A DNA stretch of 64,000 nt, taken from positions 64,211 through 128,210 of IMG/VR virus record IMGVR_UViG_3300017821_000056, one strand, 5' to 3'. Below the pieces are notes generated by a model. It searched no databases and was not told the origin of the DNA. It worked only from the letters and a program-made list of their open reading frames with translations. Origin of the DNA: a virus (taxonomy: Duplodnaviria > Caudoviricetes). The position numbers and the translations under genes are program-made. How positions within the stretch are numbered: position 1 is the first letter of the stretch; each line of letters begins with the position of its first letter. Shown here one piece after another: positions 13,991-62,204 of the stretch.

Positions 13991-14179
13991 ATGCCCGAAC
14001 CCGCCCCCCTGACCGTCACCTGCGACTCGTGCGGGGCCTCGGCCAGGACCTTTAACGGCTCCGACCCGGACGGTGCCCTGGAGTGCGGCTGCTGCCCGGA
14101 GGACCACAGCCATGCGGGGCTCGGCTGCCGCACCGTCACCATCTCGGCCACGGCGTACCTGACCGGCGAAGCCAGCTGA
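13991..14179 (+). CDS. Small Cys-rich protein
   Basis: CDSC...CGCC..H.H. Confidence 0.55.
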   Translation: MPEPAPLTVTCDSCGASARTFNGSDPDGALECGCCPEDHSHAGLGCRTVTISATAYLTGEAS

Positions 14180-14223
14180 CTTCCCCGGACACCCCGGGCT
14201 TGACCCCGAAGGAGTGAGCAGCC

Positions 14224-14811
14224 ATCAGTACCTACACCGGCACCCAGACCGAGGTGATCTTCGCCAACGGGTTCGCCTACCCCGCGGCAGCCGCCTCATC
14301 GAGCTCGGCCCAGTCGCTGATGACCGGGGCGACCGGGAAGTACCAGCAGCCGGTGTACTGGGGCGGGTTCTGGCAGCAAGGCCGGTCCAACCAGACATCC
14401 ACCATCGACTTCTCCGTCATCCTGGCGGGCCAGGGATCAGCGACCACCGCGATCTTCACCGCCGGGCTGAACACCGCGTCGAACAACATCTCCGGCAGCA
14501 CCCTGGTCGCCTGCAACGCGTTCACGTGCACCTCTTTTTCCTCGGGGACGGTCGCCGGGCATATCGAGATCTCCAACTTCGGCTCCGGGTACGGCACGTC
14601 CTCGGTGGCCACGAACCTGTGGTCGACGATCTCGCTGATCGCCAACAACGGGTCCACCACGGGCGGGGTGGTGGCGGCGGGAGGGCCGACGCAGCTGGCC
14701 ACGATCGACTTCTCGGTGAACCAGTGGCTGTACCTGACGGTCACGTTCTCCACGTCCAGCTCGAGCAATTCGGCGACGCTCCAGCAGCTGATCGTGAGAG
14801 GTGACAACTAG
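14224..14811 (+). CDS. Minor tail/virion protein, probable ATC start
   Basis: AAGGAG at 14209, in-frame TGA at 14215, then ATC AGT ACC TAC ACC GGC...; S/T/G-rich. Confidence 0.7.
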   Translation: MSTYTGTQTEVIFANGFAYPAAAASSSSAQSLMTGATGKYQQPVYWGGFWQQGRSNQTSTIDFSVILAGQGSATTAIFTAGLNTASNNISGSTLVACNAFTCTSFSSGTVAGHIEISNFGSGYGTSSVATNLWSTISLIANNGSTTGGVVAAGGPTQLATIDFSVNQWLYLTVTFSTSSSSNSATLQQLIVRGDN

Positions 14812-14842
14812 GTGGCCTTTCTGCAGCTAAGGCGGTGATTTA

Positions 14843-15310
14843 ATGGCTATGTTCGACCAGACCGACGCCACGAACCTGCTAGCTGCCATCCTCAATAACA
14901 CCAGCTACACCACGGTGGCCGCGACGCACATCCGCCTCGGCACGAATGCGCCCACGGCCGGCGCCAATATGACCGAGCTCGGCGGCGGCTCCGGGTACAC
15001 GACGGGCGGGGCGTCCATCTCCTGGAACACCGTGTCGGCGGCGGCCACGTCGAACTCGGGCACCGTGTCGTGGACGAACTCGGGGTCTGGCTGGACCCTG
15101 GTGGGGCTGGAGATCTGGGACACGGCGGGGACGCCGCTGAGGCACCTGTTCGGGACGTGGACGGGGCAGCCGGTCAGCGTGGCGACGGGCAATACGTTCC
15201 AGGTCGCTGCCGCTGGCATCGCCGTGTCGCTCGTGTTACGGAAAGTAGTTGCGCTAACTGCTGACTGTAACTTAGCGTGCGTCCGAGAGGGTGACCGATG
15301 CCCTCAGTGA
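14843..15310 (+). CDS. Minor tail fiber-like protein; apparent natural end at 15235, before TTA
   Basis: TELGGGSGY, LEIWDTAG...LFG, VATGNTFQVAAAGIAVSLV. Confidence 0.75.
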   Translation: MAMFDQTDATNLLAAILNNTSYTTVAATHIRLGTNAPTAGANMTELGGGSGYTTGGASISWNTVSAAATSNSGTVSWTNSGSGWTLVGLEIWDTAGTPLRHLFGTWTGQPVSVATGNTFQVAAAGIAVSLVLRKVVALTADCNLACVREGDRCPQ

Positions 15311-18300
15311 CGTTTACGTCCAGCGGCACATGGACCTCCGTCGCCACCTCGGTTGACTGCCAGGCCTGGGGCGAGGGCGGCAAAGGGGCCAGCGGCGTAT
15401 CCGGCAGCAGCGGCCACGGCGGAGGCGGAGGCGGCGGCGGCGCCTACGCTGAGGAAACCGCCCTCGCCGTCACGAACGGCAGCAACTACACCTACACGAT
15501 CGGCGCCGGCGGCACCGCGACCAACACTGTCTTCCCCGGAGACAGCGTTACCGTCACCGCTAAATTCGGGGCGTCCACCACCACGCAGAGCGGCGCCGCC
15601 GGCGGCGCGGCCGGTTCCAACGGCATCGCGTTCGCGGGAGGCGCTGGTGCCGCCGGGCAGTCCGGGACGGGCTCCAAGGAGGGCGGCGGCGGCGGCGGCG
15701 CAGCAGGAGCCAGCGGCGCCGGCGGCAATGCGCCCGGGCCCGCTGGCGGGACCGGGACCGGGGGCGGCGGCAGCGGAGGTGCCGGCGGGGGGACCGGCGG
15801 CACGGGAACCGTCCCTGGCGGCGGCGGCGGAGGCGGCGGGAAAGCTAACACCTTCTCCGACCCCGGCGGCAACGGCGCCGGCGGGCAGATCACCCTCATC
15901 TACACCTCCTCGGTCAGCGGCACCGCGACCCTCGCCGGCGCGGGCACGCTCACGGCGGCGGGCACGTCCGCCACGCCCGGCAGCCCGGTCGTCCCGCAGC
16001 AGAACCCGGGCGCGACGTGGCTGCGCCGGTTCGGCGGCTACCGGAACATCAGGCTCCCGTGGAACCAGCTGCAGACCATCGCGGGCACCGCCACGCTGGC
16101 CGGCGCCGGCACCCTGGCGGCGTTCGGGTCAGCCCCCGCGCCTGCCGTGGTCAACCAGTGGGCGAACTCCTACGGCCAGGGCACCGCCTTCACCAGCATC
16201 ACCTCGGCCCTGCAGTCCTGCGTCGTGCCGCTGACGCCCGCCTACTCCGCAGGCCCCGGGTCGGGGTACCCGACGGCGGGGAACTGGCTGTTCGCCATCG
16301 CCTCCTGGACGCAGGACCCGCAGATCATCAACGTCCATGTCGGGACCGGGGACGACATCCACTCATACTGGCGGGAATACCCGGCCGCCGGATCCGGCGG
16401 GTACACCCGCACCGCCATCTCCTACACCCCGAACATCGCCCGCCAGGTCGGCAACGTGTACGTCGCGCCGGACATGGAGATCGCGGCGATCAACGTCCTG
16501 GTCGTGGAGGTCGCCGGCCTCGGCCAGTGGGACACCGTAGTCGGCACGGACATCGCCTACGACGCGGCGTCCACGTCGATCTCCCTGTCCCAGGCTGCCG
16601 GGGCGCAGGCGACGTTCTTCATCGGCGCCGTCGGCGGGGACAACGCGTCCTCCGGGCAGGCGTTCCTGCCGTCCGGGTGGATGGGCCTGGCGACCCAGAC
16701 CCAGACCAACGGGGCCAATAACCTCGCGGACAACATCCTCACCGCCGCCTACCTGCCGTCCTCCAATTCCGCGCAGAACGTCTCCGGGTCGGCGGTGACG
16801 GCGGAGAACCTGTCCGGGTTCATGCTCGCCGTCCTGGTCTCCGGGAACAGCCCCATCCCCGCCGGGCACAACCCGGACTGGCCGTACGTCATCTTCGAAG
16901 CCGGGTTCGGCGCCGGGTACAACACCCCGGACTCGCAGGTCACCTGGACCGACATCACCCAGAACCTGTGGGACTGGAACGAGACCACCGGGATCCAGTA
17001 CCAGCTCGGGCAGCTGCAGGCGACCAACCTGACCATGCACCTGGACGACCTCAGCGGCTACCTGATCCCCTCCAACGCCAGTTCGCCGTACTACCCGGAT
17101 GTCCAGCCGGGGACTCCGGTGAGGATCCGGGCCGCGCTCGGCACGATGGCGGGAGTCAGCTACAACCGCTGGTACATCATCCAGCGGAACGCCACCCAGT
17201 GGGGCGAGGGGATCGACGAGGTCTTCCGCCGCTACTGCCCTGTCTCGGGAACCGACCTGTGGGCGGCGCTGTCCTCGACCCCGCCGACGTTCTACCGGTC
17301 GGAGATCTACGAGGACAAGCCGTACGCGTGGTGGCCGTGCGATGACCAGCCGGGGACGGCGGGCGTGCTCCCCACTCAGATGCTGAACGCCGCGATCGGG
17401 AATACGAATACGCTGAACATCAAGCTGTCTCCCTCCGGGGGGGTCCTCGAACCGTATTACGCTAAAAACGGGGCGGATACTTCTCACGCCACCGTCGGGG
17501 GCTCTGGTGCCGCCGCCAACACCAGCAGTGCTTATCCGCCGGGTATCGCCGTTTACGCGGTCGGCGCGGATGCCGGATGGATGCCGGGAGATCCGCAGAG
17601 TTCTGTCGCGTCCCTGGGTACCGGGAACCCGGTCACGTCTACTCCCGGGTCTGCCGCGTGGCAGGCATCCGGGCAGGCTGGGAACACTGGTTCATTCGGC
17701 TGGTACCTGATCTGCAATGATAACAGCTTCCCGGCGCTATCGGGCGGCGTCACGGTCGAGATCTGGTTTAATGCGGCATATTACCTGACCAGCGCCGGAT
17801 GGTCAGTCGGCGTCCCGATCGGGCAGCCCGGCGGTGAATCAGAGTATCCTATTACCGCACAGCCGTATAATTCTCCCATAACTATATGGGAGATCGCGAC
17901 TAACTCCGCGCCGACCTGCCTTCTCCAGCTGGATACATCCGGGCACCTGAATCTCATCACGGCAGGCACCAGTCACAGTATTTACACCGCCTCGGATCTG
18001 CGCAGCAATTCCTGGCATATGGTCACGGTCACGCTGACGACGACCGCATGGCAGGTTTGGCTGGATGGCGGGGCGAACGCCAACGTCTCGGGAACCGCAT
18101 CGATGGCTTCCGCGTGGACATATTTCATCGCCAACGGCGACTTCGGTTCGTCGGGGGGCGGCAGTCCCGCGTCACTGGTACACGGCGGGAACATCTCACT
18201 GTCCCATATCGCGATCTACCCGTGCGTGCTCCCGTATTACCGGGTACTGGATCATTACTGGGCGGCTATCACCGCGTTCGGGCAGCTGGCTGCGCCTACC

Positions 18301-19560
18301 GGGGTTCAGGTAGCCTGGGTTGAGGGAGTGTACCCGGCTACCGGCGCAGGGCAGAGCGCGCTGCAATCGGGCGAGTTCGTCCCGGACGGTTCCCTCGGGG
18401 GTCCCAACATCCCGCTGGGCGGCGGCATCCTGGGCGCGGGCGGCTATAACGCCTCTTCGGGTACCGGCATCTCCGTCGTGGTGACAGCTGCGGCTCCCGG
18501 GATCACGTCAGGTCCTTCCGCGTGGCTCACCAGCGCGACCTCTTATGCGGCGATAGCGGGTGCCGATACGCCCCTTAATAACGTTTTCCCGTGGGTCTCC
18601 TGGTCCGGGGTGGCTCCTCTTTTCAATGTTTACACCAGTATTAATCTCGGCTCTGAGACGCAGGCCGCCGTGGTCTGCGGGAACGGGGATTCATTCAGCG
18701 GGGGTTACGGGGGGAGTGCTACAGGGAACGGCTTCTCGCAGGTATCCGGGGGAAACGGGTCCGTCCCGCCTGTGGCCGCCTCCGCGATCGGGGACACCGT
18801 GGGGCAGCGGATCGAGCGGCTGATGCGCGGCGGCCGGTGCACGTCCCCGAACCGGTGCATCGACCCCGCCCCCCTCCTGGTGCAGGCACCCGGGGTGAAC
18901 GGCGGCGGGCAGCAGGTCGGCGCGGAGATCCAGGCGATCCAGCAGTCCGACGGCGGCATGCTGTACATCGACAACTGCAACCACCTCACCTACTGGCAGC
19001 GCCCCCACCTAGCATCCCAGTACTCCTCCCCGGTGTGGAACATCGGCCCCACCACCTCGGCGGGCAGGATCCCGTACTACAAGGACATCGAGTGGGTCAC
19101 CGACCCGCAGCGGGTCTGGAACGTGATCACCATCACCCCGCTGTCCCCCACCGGGGCGGCCCTGCCGGAGATCACCCCGAGCAGCGCCTCGGCGGTGAAC
19201 TCCTCGCAGATCCGGTACGGGGCGCAGCCGCTGGCGATCACCTCCTACCTGCAATCCACGGCGGAGATGCAGAACCAGGCGGACTGGCTGCTGTCGAACT
19301 TCGGGACCCCGCAGCGGCACGCGGAGAACGTGAAGATCGACGCCGCAGCCTACCCGCAGGCATGGGAACTGGTCCTGGGGGTCAACGTGGGTGACCTGAT
19401 CACGCTCGAAGATTGGGAGATCGGCGGCGGCGGATCGGTGCAGACGTACCGGGTGACCGAGATCCAGCGGCACATCACCATGGGGTTCGGGGACAACCCG
19501 GCGACGACAGGCAGCGTGACGCTCACGCTCGATGCGGAGCCCAGTAGTTACTGGGCGTAG
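15298..19560 (+). CDS. Large minor tail protein: Gly-rich N-terminus, LamG/concanavalin-like domain, tail-hub-like C-terminus
   Basis: WGEGG.G..GGGGGGAY; PYAWWPCDD, VTVEIWF, WHMVTVT, HIAIYP. Confidence 0.8.
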   Translation: MPSVTFTSSGTWTSVATSVDCQAWGEGGKGASGVSGSSGHGGGGGGGGAYAEETALAVTNGSNYTYTIGAGGTATNTVFPGDSVTVTAKFGASTTTQSGAAGGAAGSNGIAFAGGAGAAGQSGTGSKEGGGGGGAAGASGAGGNAPGPAGGTGTGGGGSGGAGGGTGGTGTVPGGGGGGGGKANTFSDPGGNGAGGQITLIYTSSVSGTATLAGAGTLTAAGTSATPGSPVVPQQNPGATWLRRFGGYRNIRLPWNQLQTIAGTATLAGAGTLAAFGSAPAPAVVNQWANSYGQGTAFTSITSALQSCVVPLTPAYSAGPGSGYPTAGNWLFAIASWTQDPQIINVHVGTGDDIHSYWREYPAAGSGGYTRTAISYTPNIARQVGNVYVAPDMEIAAINVLVVEVAGLGQWDTVVGTDIAYDAASTSISLSQAAGAQATFFIGAVGGDNASSGQAFLPSGWMGLATQTQTNGANNLADNILTAAYLPSSNSAQNVSGSAVTAENLSGFMLAVLVSGNSPIPAGHNPDWPYVIFEAGFGAGYNTPDSQVTWTDITQNLWDWNETTGIQYQLGQLQATNLTMHLDDLSGYLIPSNASSPYYPDVQPGTPVRIRAALGTMAGVSYNRWYIIQRNATQWGEGIDEVFRRYCPVSGTDLWAALSSTPPTFYRSEIYEDKPYAWWPCDDQPGTAGVLPTQMLNAAIGNTNTLNIKLSPSGGVLEPYYAKNGADTSHATVGGSGAAANTSSAYPPGIAVYAVGADAGWMPGDPQSSVASLGTGNPVTSTPGSAAWQASGQAGNTGSFGWYLICNDNSFPALSGGVTVEIWFNAAYYLTSAGWSVGVPIGQPGGESEYPITAQPYNSPITIWEIATNSAPTCLLQLDTSGHLNLITAGTSHSIYTASDLRSNSWHMVTVTLTTTAWQVWLDGGANANVSGTASMASAWTYFIANGDFGSSGGGSPASLVHGGNISLSHIAIYPCVLPYYRVLDHYWAAITAFGQLAAPTGVQVAWVEGVYPATGAGQSALQSGEFVPDGSLGGPNIPLGGGILGAGGYNASSGTGISVVVTAAAPGITSGPSAWLTSATSYAAIAGADTPLNNVFPWVSWSGVAPLFNVYTSINLGSETQAAVVCGNGDSFSGGYGGSATGNGFSQVSGGNGSVPPVAASAIGDTVGQRIERLMRGGRCTSPNRCIDPAPLLVQAPGVNGGGQQVGAEIQAIQQSDGGMLYIDNCNHLTYWQRPHLASQYSSPVWNIGPTTSAGRIPYYKDIEWVTDPQRVWNVITITPLSPTGAALPEITPSSASAVNSSQIRYGAQPLAITSYLQSTAEMQNQADWLLSNFGTPQRHAENVKIDAAAYPQAWELVLGVNVGDLITLEDWEIGGGGSVQTYRVTEIQRHITMGFGDNPATTGSVTLTLDAEPSSYWA

Positions 19561-27152: not shown

Positions 27153-27794
27153 ATGACGGTTTACACGCTGTTCGGCCAGACGGGCGGCGGGTCGGCCAGC
27201 GGAGATAACGCCTCGTACACGCTGGGAGTGCAGTTCACCGTCTCATCGGTGGTCACTCTCACCGGTATCTGGTGGTACTCTGCGGCCACTCAGAATGTCC
27301 TGCCGGCTGCCTGCTGTATCTTCGCGGAGACGTCCCCTGGAAGCGGCTCAATCGTCTCCGGCACGCAGAATAACTCCCCGTCGTGGTCAGGGGCGGCGGG
27401 ATCGGGATGGGTCAGGTGCTCTTATTCCGCACCCGCCCTGTCTCCCGGGAACACATACAAGGCCTGCGTCCTGGGCTCGGGCGGCGGCACGCCCGGCTGG
27501 TATTCCGCGACGTCCCACTACTGGGACACCGGCTCAGGTTCGGGCGGCCTGGCCAGCGGGCCTCTCAGCGCCCCGGGCAACGCGGGCGGCGACGGCGGCC
27601 AGGATACATTCGTCACCCCGGCCGCAGCGCTGACCTACCCGGCCAGCTCGTTCAACGCGGCGAACTACTGGGTCGATGTTGAGGTCACCGCATCCGGCGT
27701 CACGCCTGCCGGGCCTGCTTATACCGCGCTCATGAGCGGCATGTTATGTCTGCCATCAACATTACCTACAGTAACTATTACCCGTCGCCGGTAA
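27153..27794 (+). CDS. DUF4082-like beta-sandwich protein; apparent natural end at 27743, before TTA
   Basis: YTLGVQFTV...GIWWY, YPASSFNAANYWVDVEV. Confidence 0.75.
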   Translation: MTVYTLFGQTGGGSASGDNASYTLGVQFTVSSVVTLTGIWWYSAATQNVLPAACCIFAETSPGSGSIVSGTQNNSPSWSGAAGSGWVRCSYSAPALSPGNTYKACVLGSGGGTPGWYSATSHYWDTGSGSGGLASGPLSAPGNAGGDGGQDTFVTPAAALTYPASSFNAANYWVDVEVTASGVTPAGPAYTALMSGMLCLPSTLPTVTITRRR

Positions 27795-32201: not shown

Positions 32202-32516
32202 ATGCGCGCTGTCAGGGCCCTCGCCTCGGTGCCCCCGCACGTGACCGGGTGGGGTATCTTCTGGCTGGCGTGGATGCTCACCGGGACCGGCGTCGAGCTG
32301 TACTGGGTGGCCGTCAACACGGCCAATACGCTGTCGCGGCAGGTCTGGGGGCTGGAGCGGATCGACTTCGCCCACCCGCTGTACTTCTCCGACTGGACGT
32401 GGCTGCACTGGCTGATAGCCGTCGTACTGTGGCTGTTCTTCGGCTGGCTCAGCCTTCACTTCCCTTTTGCCTGGCTAAGGTTATGGCCAGCCGCTCATCG
32501 TAACCCCGCACCCTGA
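32202..32516 (+). CDS. Two-TM membrane protein; apparent natural end at 32480, before TTA
   Basis: Trp-rich TM segments ending ...LHFPFAWLR. Confidence 0.7.
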   Translation: MRAVRALASVPPHVTGWGIFWLAWMLTGTGVELYWVAVNTANTLSRQVWGLERIDFAHPLYFSDWTWLHWLIAVVLWLFFGWLSLHFPFAWLRLWPAAHRNPAP

Positions 32517-54638: not shown

Positions 54639-56196
54639 TGCGCGGTCTCCCCTCGCTGCTGGTCTTTCAATTCCCGCTCGTACGCCTTCGCTGTCTTCGG
54701 CGCGATCCCGATGAGCTTCCCGGCCTGCTGTGCCGTGAGGCCCTGATCCAGGTAGCCGGCGAACTCGGCTAGCCGCTCCTTCCGCCCGGCCATCGCCTTG
54801 GCGTTCGCGGGGTGAAGCTCATCGGGGGCTTCGGCTCGTTCCGGGTAGTAGCGGGGGTCGTTCGGAAACCAGTCCGGGTCTCGCTTGTAGTGGTAGTAGC
54901 CGCCCTCGCCGTCGCCGGCGTCATCGCGGACGGTGGCCGGGCTGGACTGGCCCATCGTGGAGTAGCTGACCCTGATGGTGCTCACGAGCCCTCCTCCCCT
55001 CGCTGCCTGTCTTGCCTTCGCCCGTACAGCCAGTAAGCCGTCCAGGAGACAGCAGTGAGACCGGAGATGACGGCGGCGAAGATGCCTGCCGCAGCGCCGC
55101 TCACGACACGCGCTCCAGCGGTATCGGCCCGGTGTCGGCCTCGGCCATGCCGGGCACGATCCCGGGCGCGTTCCTGGCCGCGTCCGTCGCCTCTGGCTTC
55201 GGCTTGGCCGGCGGTATCACCCGCACCGACAGGGAGAACACGAGCCACTTCTTCGCTATGGCCAGGGTGCCCAGGGAGGCGAGGAAGCCGACGGTGGCGC
55301 AGACGGTCTCAAGAGGGTTCACGATCCCGGCCCTTCCTCGTCGCCGCTGTTGCCGTGCACCTTGCAAGCCGGGTCAGCTTTGATCAGCCGCCATGTCGCC
55401 GGGTCCGCCCGTACCAGCCGCCACGTGCAGCCGCAGCCTTCCGGGATGACAGGGGGGCTGCCGGGCTCGGATAGCAGGTCGCCGGTCACGATGCCCTCAC
55501 TTCGCCGAAGTGGTATTTGCCGTGATGTGCCCTCGGATACGGGATAGCCCCGATGACCTCCAGGACCTCGCGGAGCATCCCCTTCGCCGCCTGCTCGTCT
55601 CCTTCAGCAGCAGCGAGGGAAAGGCTGGCGAGGGTGATGCAGGCGCTCCGCTGCTGCTCCGGGGTGACGGTCCCGGCCTGGATGGCGTCGTCCTCGGGGT
55701 TCACGGTGCCTGCTCCTTCTCGCCGCCGCCGGCCGGATCGCAGGCGAAGCGGAACACTCCTGTGGCCAGGTCCCGCGGCGTCTGGTAGATCCGCCCGACC
55801 ACGCCCTCGACTGGCCGCCCGGCATCGGTGACCGCCGCGATCCTGGCGCCGACCTCGAGCCAGACGGCGGTCCCCAGCGATCCGTCCCGCCTCCTGATGT
55901 CCGCCTCGATGGCGAGCACGCGCTCTATGCGCTTCCGGTACCACGGCATAACGGCTGCCTCCCCTTCGCTGCGAACTGCCCTTCAAGCCAGGGCAGGTAC
56001 GTCTTCTCCTGGGCTGCCAGGTGCTCCTCGCGTGCCCGGGCCCGTGCCCGTGCCTGCCGCCAGCCCGCGGCCCACTCCACGGCCACCACCAGCTCGTAGA
56101 AGGCGAGGAGCACGGCCACCACGGCGAAGGCGACGACGAAGATCGCGGCGAGGGAGACCTGGACGGTGGCCAGGGTGATGCTGGCGCCGGCGGTGA

Positions 56197-61709: not shown

Positions 61710-62204
61710 CTATCGGGCACCTTCACGCCCCTTCTTGTCGCGGATTGGTAACGGAAGGCGCTGCGGACGAGGAGGGAGCGCTGGAGGACTCATCAGGTCA
61801 CGCAAGAGGTTCGAGACCGGAACGAGGACGCCCCACGTCGGGTGGGAGCCGTTGATGCCCCCGTTCCTCCTGCGGCCGAGCGCGTAGTAGTAGCGGGCGA
61901 CCGCCTTCAGCCGATCCACGGGAGCAAAGACGACTGTCTCCGTCGCCAGTACCAGCGCCCATACTTCTGCCGTGGTCACGGAGATTCCACTGGGCTTGTA
62001 CTGGCCGAAGTAGCGGCAGCTGTACTCGATGTAGATGTTCCCTGTCCTTGCCGCCCAGATGTCAGTCTTGGTTTCGACACGGGTTCCGTCTTTGAGGGAC
62101 TGAATTAGATCGATGACGAACAGTTCACCGTTCTTGCCGATCTCCCAGTCGATGTCCCATTCAGGATTCCGGCCGGTCGCCATGCGCTCGGCCACGCTGG
62201 TCAT
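61710..62204 (-). CDS. PD-(D/E)XK-like nuclease/hypothetical protein
   Basis: GELFV...VETKTD...TGNIYIE...PSGI. Confidence 0.55.
   Translation of the reverse strand: MTSVAERMATGRNPEWDIDWEIGKNGELFVIDLIQSLKDGTRVETKTDIWAARTGNIYIEYSCRYFGQYKPSGISVTTAEVWALVLATETVVFAPVDRLKAVARYYYALGRRRNGGINGSHPTWGVLVPVSNLLRDLMSPPALPPRPQRLPLPIRDKKGREGAR

Follow-up and report, generated by a model that had tools for sequence, protein, structure and literature searches.

At which codon does translation of the fiber-like gene that starts at position 14843 come to an end? The window, by which we mean the whole 64,000-nucleotide stretch analysed here, corresponds to the latter half (64211-128210) of a virus record that is complete at 128,210 bp, with direct terminal repeats and 68.7% G+C (G000), which represents an uncultured high-GC phage in the form of one metagenome-assembled genome. 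With standard decoding the open reading frame (14843-15310, + strand) would give a protein of 155 aa, and its first in-frame standard stop under table 11 is a TGA (15308-15310) that lies 13 nt into the next gene, a large tail gene encoding 1420 aa (15298-19560, + strand) whose start, MPSVTFTSSG, aligns with the starts of its relatives. The conserved part of the fiber-like gene comprises 131 codons (14843-15235, + strand) and ends in ...IAVSLV, as given by the ends of homologues and by a match to the Pfam Gp80 profile (PF23140), in which fiber residues 9-128 cover profile positions 7-127 of 128. At this end the codons ATC GCC GTG TCG CTC and a last GTG (15233-15235) are followed by TTA (15236-15238, + strand), CGG, AAA and G-TAG. 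This TAG (15246-15248, + strand) belongs to the +1 frame and comes 10 nt after the final sense codon, and a second in-frame TTA (15272-15274, + strand) stands directly 3' of a hairpin. The first-pass annotation had singled out this order of codons with its TAG at 15246, as well as the 24 extra residues (LRKVVALTADCNLACVREGDRCPQ) that normal decoding would add across the second TTA and into the gene at 15298, and on these points it read the sequence correctly.

We suggest that the TTA at 15236, which stands where relatives have TAA, TAG or TGA, acts as a stop-equivalent at which the fiber gene functionally ends, that the product would be a protein of 131 aa, and that the hairpin is probably not the cause of termination. 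Resting as it does on comparison of sequences, this reading is given a probability of roughly 0.7.

The fiber end in its homologues

In a search of 5.8 billion proteins 372 relatives of the fiber were found, and the counts given here are for the best 120 of the 372. In 107 of these 120 the protein ends exactly at the residue aligned with V131 (...SLV), and on viral and metagenome contigs the relatives with ordinary ends have TAA, TAG or TGA directly after ...SL(V/A), which agrees with the earlier claims that coding ends at ...SLV and that the TTA is the key position. The other 13 homologues continue, and in 13 of 13 the first residue added is Leu, followed by mostly unrelated tails of 2-32 residues. 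Conservation of the extension at the protein level, which the first-pass annotation had named as the outcome that would overturn its view, was thus looked for and not found. Its suspicion that the atypical 24-residue tail is not genuine protein was borne out as well, the tail being absent in the 107 and unrelated to those of the 13.

At the level of DNA, TTA occupies the stop position in all eight continuing loci for which DNA is at hand (the window, L039, L041, L043, L045, L047, L056 and L066) and TTG or CTN in none of them, although TTA is the rarest Leu codon. Among the 13 extended homologues 12 are known as proteins only, and TTA is there deduced from the Leu. When a stop codon is lost through random point mutation, Leu is expected in only about 1 in 7-8 cases, and Gln, Lys, Glu, Ser, Tyr, Trp, Arg, Gly and Cys were never seen at the fiber stop position among the 120 homologues. 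Since only Leu is found where random stop loss would rarely give Leu, TTA appears to be specifically interchangeable with stop codons at the fiber end. On a maximum-likelihood tree built from the 131 core columns the Leu/TTA trait corresponds to about 12 changes, at least 5 of them forced by well-supported branches, and its clustering is no greater than with shuffled labels. With TTA at one fixed position in about 10% of its natural variants, the fiber family would provide a clean test case.

It was considered that TTA might be decoded as Leu in the usual way, so that the 155-aa fiber with its 24-residue tail is made and tolerated, the slow codon softening the loss of the stop and for that reason recurring at this place. 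The frame is open to 15310 with table 11, as this would have it, and some of the 13 tails have L-x-K-V-F/V in common. Nevertheless we regard it as quite unlikely, since the C-terminus is fixed at ...SLV in so large a part of the family, the tails vary in both length and sequence, and GC3 in the fiber ORF falls from 0.90 before the TTA to 0.48 after it. Furthermore, in L056 an AAAG-T-TT motif apparently lies in another frame with respect to the TTA (the protein-only homologues having been back-translated by eye), which hints at conservation of nucleotides and not of protein. In one sub-clade (L039, positions 1891-2900, and L043, L041 and L045) a free-standing HNH endonuclease gene (MPRGAKP...HHVNGNRQDN...) is found between the fiber and the next gene, and when TTA is read as Leu in L039 and L043 an in-frame fiber-HNH fusion, a 463-aa ORF, is obtained. 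Since the fiber would there be fused to an endonuclease, meaningful read-through is unlikely, and at other sites too it would create gene fusions. If TTA acts as a stop-equivalent, the 24-residue tail would not be made in a meaningful amount, and the product would be the 131-aa protein which nearly all relatives encode.

That the TTA is merely a TAA misread during sequencing or assembly, or that the gene is decaying in a defective phage, would fit with the phage being known from a single metagenome-assembled genome, but is very improbable. The Leu/TTA state recurs in assemblies made independently of each other (JGI, ENA and Logan sources), the genome itself is complete with terminal repeats and has at least 8 sites at which TTA ends a gene, and the substitution is always to TTA. 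A natural exchange of TAA and TTA was also found at another junction. In L055 the gene upstream of the fiber ends in ...NAEVAP-TTATG (565-569), overlapping the fiber start, and in L057, a close relative of L055, the same junction (just upstream of 169) reads ...NAEVAP-TAATG. Apart from this TTATG case, the frame scan in the flanks of TTA-bearing loci was swamped by antisense frames.

TTA elsewhere in the phage genome and its relatives

The genes of G000 were called by our own method, based on codon usage, which gave 167 genes covering 81% of the genome. In their ~34,400 codons 10 in-frame TTAs were counted where 60 are expected from position-specific base frequencies, and all 10 lie at or after apparent gene ends. 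Three related phages have together a single in-frame TTA in ~76,000 codons against ~211 expected (G002, 1 observed and 59 expected; G001, 0 and 50; G005, with 57.7% G+C, 0 and 102), and we take all these counts as supporting and not decisive, given that the genes were called by our own method, which mildly penalises TTA and accounts for 57-81% of each genome. The codons CTA, ATA, GTA, TTT, TAT, AAA and AAT are found at 0.3-1.6 times expectation. Ratios of in-frame to out-of-frame TTA in crude long ORFs were not discriminating, as shadow frames dominate there. No TTA gene end was found in the own gene calls of G001, G002 and G005. Taken at the level of codon counts, TTA seems to be avoided throughout the phage group and to be used as an end in some members only, in a patchy manner. 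By these comparisons TTA appears never to be used for Leu inside genes in this lineage, and to be exchangeable with TAA, TAG and TGA at gene ends.

At four sites of G000 the TTA is aligned to the residue with the stops of orthologues in G001, G002 or G005, namely the fiber, a glycosyltransferase (GT) gene at genome position 60644, and the sites at window positions 27744 and 32481. The TTA at 27744-27746 (+ strand) forms a TTATG overlap between a DUF4082 gene and a GH16 gene; 18 residues separate it from NYW.D.EVT, and the G001 orthologue has the same 18 residues followed by TGA. At 32481-32483 (+ strand, genome 96691) a 104-aa ORF for a membrane-like protein ends in ...FAWLR-TTA, compared with ...FGMWR-TGA in the G002 orthologue. 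A fifth TTA is supported by a complete DUF6221 domain that ends 6 codons upstream. On the - strand, the TTA at 55949-55951 (genome 120161) is seen from the sequence to form a TTATG overlap with the next minus-strand gene, which with that at 27744 makes two such stop/start overlaps in G000. The TTA at 61749-61751 (- strand, genome 125961) probably ends the gene of a phrog_13596 protein, where the profile match extends to about residue 133 of 164, the TTA is codon 152, and GC3 is low beyond it. A further probable end (2283-2285, + strand) lies in a 282-codon ORF that resembles two genes joined in frame. In all, TTA would end about 5-7% of G000 genes, with at least 8 such sites.

The GT family serves as a replicate of the fiber family. 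Its TTA (genome 60644-60646, + strand, outside the window; L093:697-699) comes 11 residues after RRKF, a distance common to the three sequences compared, of which the other two have TAG in its place. Base for base, this TTA reads on the opposite strand as the TAA stop of a convergent DUF6221 gene, and the 192-codon frame that stays open beyond it is the antisense shadow of that gene. Nearly all of 120 GT homologues end in WVLSRV(A), and the non-conserved extensions, in six homologues known as proteins only, begin with Leu right after WVLSRV in 6 of 6 cases. In neither the fiber nor the GT family, then, is a sense codon other than those of Leu seen at the stop position, which is a further point against ordinary decoding of the TTA as Leu. 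Three GT homologues (P0161, P0180 and P0185) have a conserved extension, (S/H)G..EG..REAGPV.V.AG, whose first residue is not Leu; this extension appears from its conservation to be genuine, in contrast to the TTA tails.

Two features of the flanking sequence were observed along the way. Pooling the ends at window 2283, 15236, 27744, 32481, 55951 and 61751, genome 35541 and 60644, and L039, L041, L045, L047, L056 and L066, the base after the TTA is C or T at 14 of 14, compared with 84 of 167 ordinary stops. With A or G at this place, which was never seen at the 14 ends, the +1 frame would gain a TAA or TAG. A second in-frame TTA within 6-12 codons of the first, resembling tandem stops, is found at three sites (window 15272, window 27762 and L047:1909, the last as TTAGCG), and this is not significant, the spacers being A+T-rich.

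Release at UUA and the host

Recoding of stop codons is known from phages, where TAG or TGA is read as an amino acid. As in those phages, table 11 misreads the gene ends of the lineage described here, but the change runs in the opposite direction, with a sense codon standing in place of a stop. The closer parallel is found in organelles. UUA was described as a termination codon in labyrinthulean mitochondria, peDinoflagellate plastids and Marsupiomonadales mitochondria, where it was associated with an altered RF2 or RF1 and with a cognate tRNA that has been lost (PMC12574857). In G000, as in these organelles, UUA is found at the stop positions of homologues, is absent as a sense codon, and has no cognate tRNA in the genome in question. 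Going by the alignments, the two marks of a sense-to-stop reassignment as known from organelles (NCBI table 23), UUA at homologues' stop positions and its absence from conserved sense positions, both appear to be present. The cases differ in that a mutated organellar RF2 or RF1 is proposed as the reader in organelles, whereas G000 belongs to a phage of a high-GC bacterium and has no release factor of its own; furthermore, TTA ends only a small share of the genes in G000, while the related phages avoid TTA and have no TTA ends. In a full-text search of the literature TTA was not found as a gene end in phages or bacteria, UUA stops being described in organelles only and UUA bypass in Streptomyces phages only.

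No tRNA gene at all, and hence none with the anticodon UAA, was found in the phage, nor were genes for a release factor (RF-1 domain) or peptidyl-tRNA hydrolase (Pth). As the phage lacks all three, the machinery acting at UUA must come from the host. The region had no match among cultured and GenBank phages in a nucleotide search; a protein search with it yielded nothing beyond two metagenomic records, each 32% identical; no prophage relative of the fiber was found among the 185,579 species genomes searched; and WhiB, looked for as a host marker, was absent. G000 has three DUF6221 genes (genome 1963-2289, 35154-35525 and 60662-61159), and DUF6221 is absent from 14 of 14 control genomes. The nearest bacterial homologues of one of them, all of them weak matches, are from Actinomycetota (n=2), Bryobacteraceae (n=1) and an Acidaminobacter MAG (n=1), and because of these matches an actinobacterial host is likely.

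The route by which the peptide is released would be, in the version favoured here, true termination at UUA by the host, for example through an altered release factor and with no tRNA that reads UUA. As a second option the ribosome may stall at an undecodable (hungry or unassigned) UUA and then be freed by drop-off or rescue. True termination is favoured because of the TTATG overlaps, where a ribosome that merely stalled would obstruct initiation of the following gene. Carried further, this leads to the tentative proposal, for which we would allow somewhat less than an even chance, that UUA serves as a fourth stop codon in a soil bacterium of high G+C, uncultured and most likely an actinobacterium, with an altered release factor and no UUA tRNA, and that its phages, G000 among them, use TTA in free exchange with TAA, TAG and TGA. 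If this is true, the genetic code would have undergone a sense-to-stop change outside organelles, in the world of bacteria and their phages. The TTA pattern may itself help to find the host, which could be sought among bacteria without a UUA reader or with an altered RF2. More generally, if TTA ends translation, standard gene callers would add false C-terminal tails to such genes, fuse neighbours and hide gene boundaries.

The hairpin and a possible bypass

The TTA of the fiber gene lies at the foot of an RNA stem-loop of 37 nt (15235-15271, + strand), which was found by folding and consists of a 7-bp outer stem and an 8-bp inner stem, separated by an AA/GA internal loop and capped by a CGC loop. 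It runs from G15235 to C15271 and thus begins one base before the TTA. The first-pass annotation had its length, internal loop and location right, and the number of pairs is 15 (3 of them G-U) instead of the 14 it gave. The predicted minimum free energy is -14.9 kcal/mol (z = -4.5); this stability was equalled by 1 of 1000 dinucleotide shuffles and by none of 450 windows with similar G+C taken from the 64 kb. Since the reverse complement folds at only -5.7 kcal/mol, compared with -14.9 on the + strand, the hairpin is taken to be a structure of the sense-strand RNA. No Rfam covariance model matched 14800-15700 up to E = 1. A scan of 14000-16000 revealed no intrinsic (rho-independent) terminator, the hairpin being followed by TTAGCGTGCG, and no promoter was found by a scan of the spacer.

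Hairpins do not seem to be regular companions of TTA ends. When -6 to +45 was folded around 12 TTA ends and 167 ordinary stops the z-score distributions were the same and no enrichment was found, the outliers being the fiber site (z -2.2) and one at window 29842 that resembles a terminator (z -1.7). Where relatives end in an ordinary stop, the spacer (9-70 nt) is unrelated and lacks the hairpin. The sole TTA-bearing relative with a homologous spacer is L047, whose fiber is 57% identical. There the 7-bp outer stem and its spacing are kept although three pairs have changed on one side (GC/GU, UA/UG and GU/GC), and the inner stem is its own. The conservation that the first reading had asked for is seen in this divergent relative and absent where the stops are ordinary, and it concerns two sequences (G000 and L047), which are too few for covariation. 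Judged on folding and comparison, the hairpin looks real but secondary to the TTA, and not the cause of termination.

Structures of this kind are known from translational bypassing. Gene 60 of phage T4 has a UAG stop, GGA serves there both for take-off and for landing, the gap spans 50 nt, the nascent peptide carries a signal, and coding continues beyond the gap. The fiber site resembles it in that a compact stem-loop, with the A-site codon at its 5' foot, follows the take-off codon immediately, and none of the other elements (the UAG stop, matched codons, 50-nt gap, nascent-peptide signal or resumed coding) was found at the fiber site.

A second precedent is the Streptomyces phage phiHau3, in whose large terminase gene, as in that of two prophages, UUA-mediated bypassing was described (PMC10732093). 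In the absence of the UUA tRNA, two 10-nt blocks led by UUA are bypassed there; local RNA structure is present, and the bypass has experimental support (PMC10732093). Applied to the fiber gene, a ribosome carrying peptidyl-tRNA-Val would slide over the 10-nt TTACGGAAAG, aided by the stem-loop, and terminate at the TAG of 15246, which would be the landing stop and would give the same 131-aa product. The likeness is considerable, as both are high-GC phages in which UUA is very rare and is surrounded by RNA structure, the possible gap is again 10 nt, and at the fiber site the UUA follows directly on the take-off GTG and is followed by the 15-bp stem-loop. In L047, which keeps the outer stem, a TAA stands at the same +10 offset, and in L056 a TAA stands at +7. 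At the fiber site itself, a hop would account equally well for the hairpin that L047 keeps and for the stop that both sequences have at +10.

Such a bypass nevertheless appears unlikely. In phiHau3 the gap lies inside a conserved ORF that resumes downstream, whereas at the fiber site no conserved ORF resumes after the TTA, the homologues ending at residue 131. The codon reached by a +10 hop is AAG and doesn't match the take-off GUG; the sole GUG that could serve for landing, at 15277, would add 4 more residues before a TGA. An alignment of the fiber with close relatives did not open a 10-nt gap, and the spacers are too divergent for alignment to show or exclude a 10-nt insertion before an ancestral TAG. 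Moreover, in L039, L041, L045 and L066 and at genome 96691, 120161 and 125961 no close out-of-frame stop is present, so that a hop cannot explain these TTA ends; the TTATG overlaps and the TAATG/TTATG pair of L057 and L055 are point substitutions and not inserts; and hairpins are not enriched at TTA ends. The skip of 10 nt onto the TAG that the first-pass annotation had proposed is therefore matched by stops at +10 and +7 in two relatives, but it lacks a matching landing codon and leaves the other TTA ends unexplained. The reading of the TTA as a stop-equivalent is a signal at the level of the codon, which is thereby set apart from a better known phenomenon, the bypass that UUA triggers in Streptomyces phages. 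A +1 or -1 frameshift at the TTA was also considered as a general mechanism and rejected, as the next out-of-frame stop is 3 to more than 39 codons away.

The likeness noticed earlier between the start of the hairpin and positions 27-36 of the window was followed up. The sequence TTACGGCAAG is indeed present at 27-36 and is followed by GGGGGG-TGATG-CCCCC (36-51) and an ATG at 53, and the hairpin formed there stops 2 nt short of this ATG, which had been thought to be hidden in it. TTACGGMAAG as a repeated unit was rejected. Because TTACGG occurs in 27 copies in the genome, mostly as out-of-frame TAC-GG, the likeness is probably due to chance.

The hairpin of the fiber gene is taken to be a local mRNA element of the intergenic spacer, common to G000 and at least one divergent relative, which may serve stability, processing or control of the downstream gene. 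Within the same spacer a small stem (15287-15305) was observed, in which a Shine-Dalgarno-like GAGGGU pairs with GCCCUC in codons 2-3 of the downstream tail gene, and which could damp initiation of that gene.
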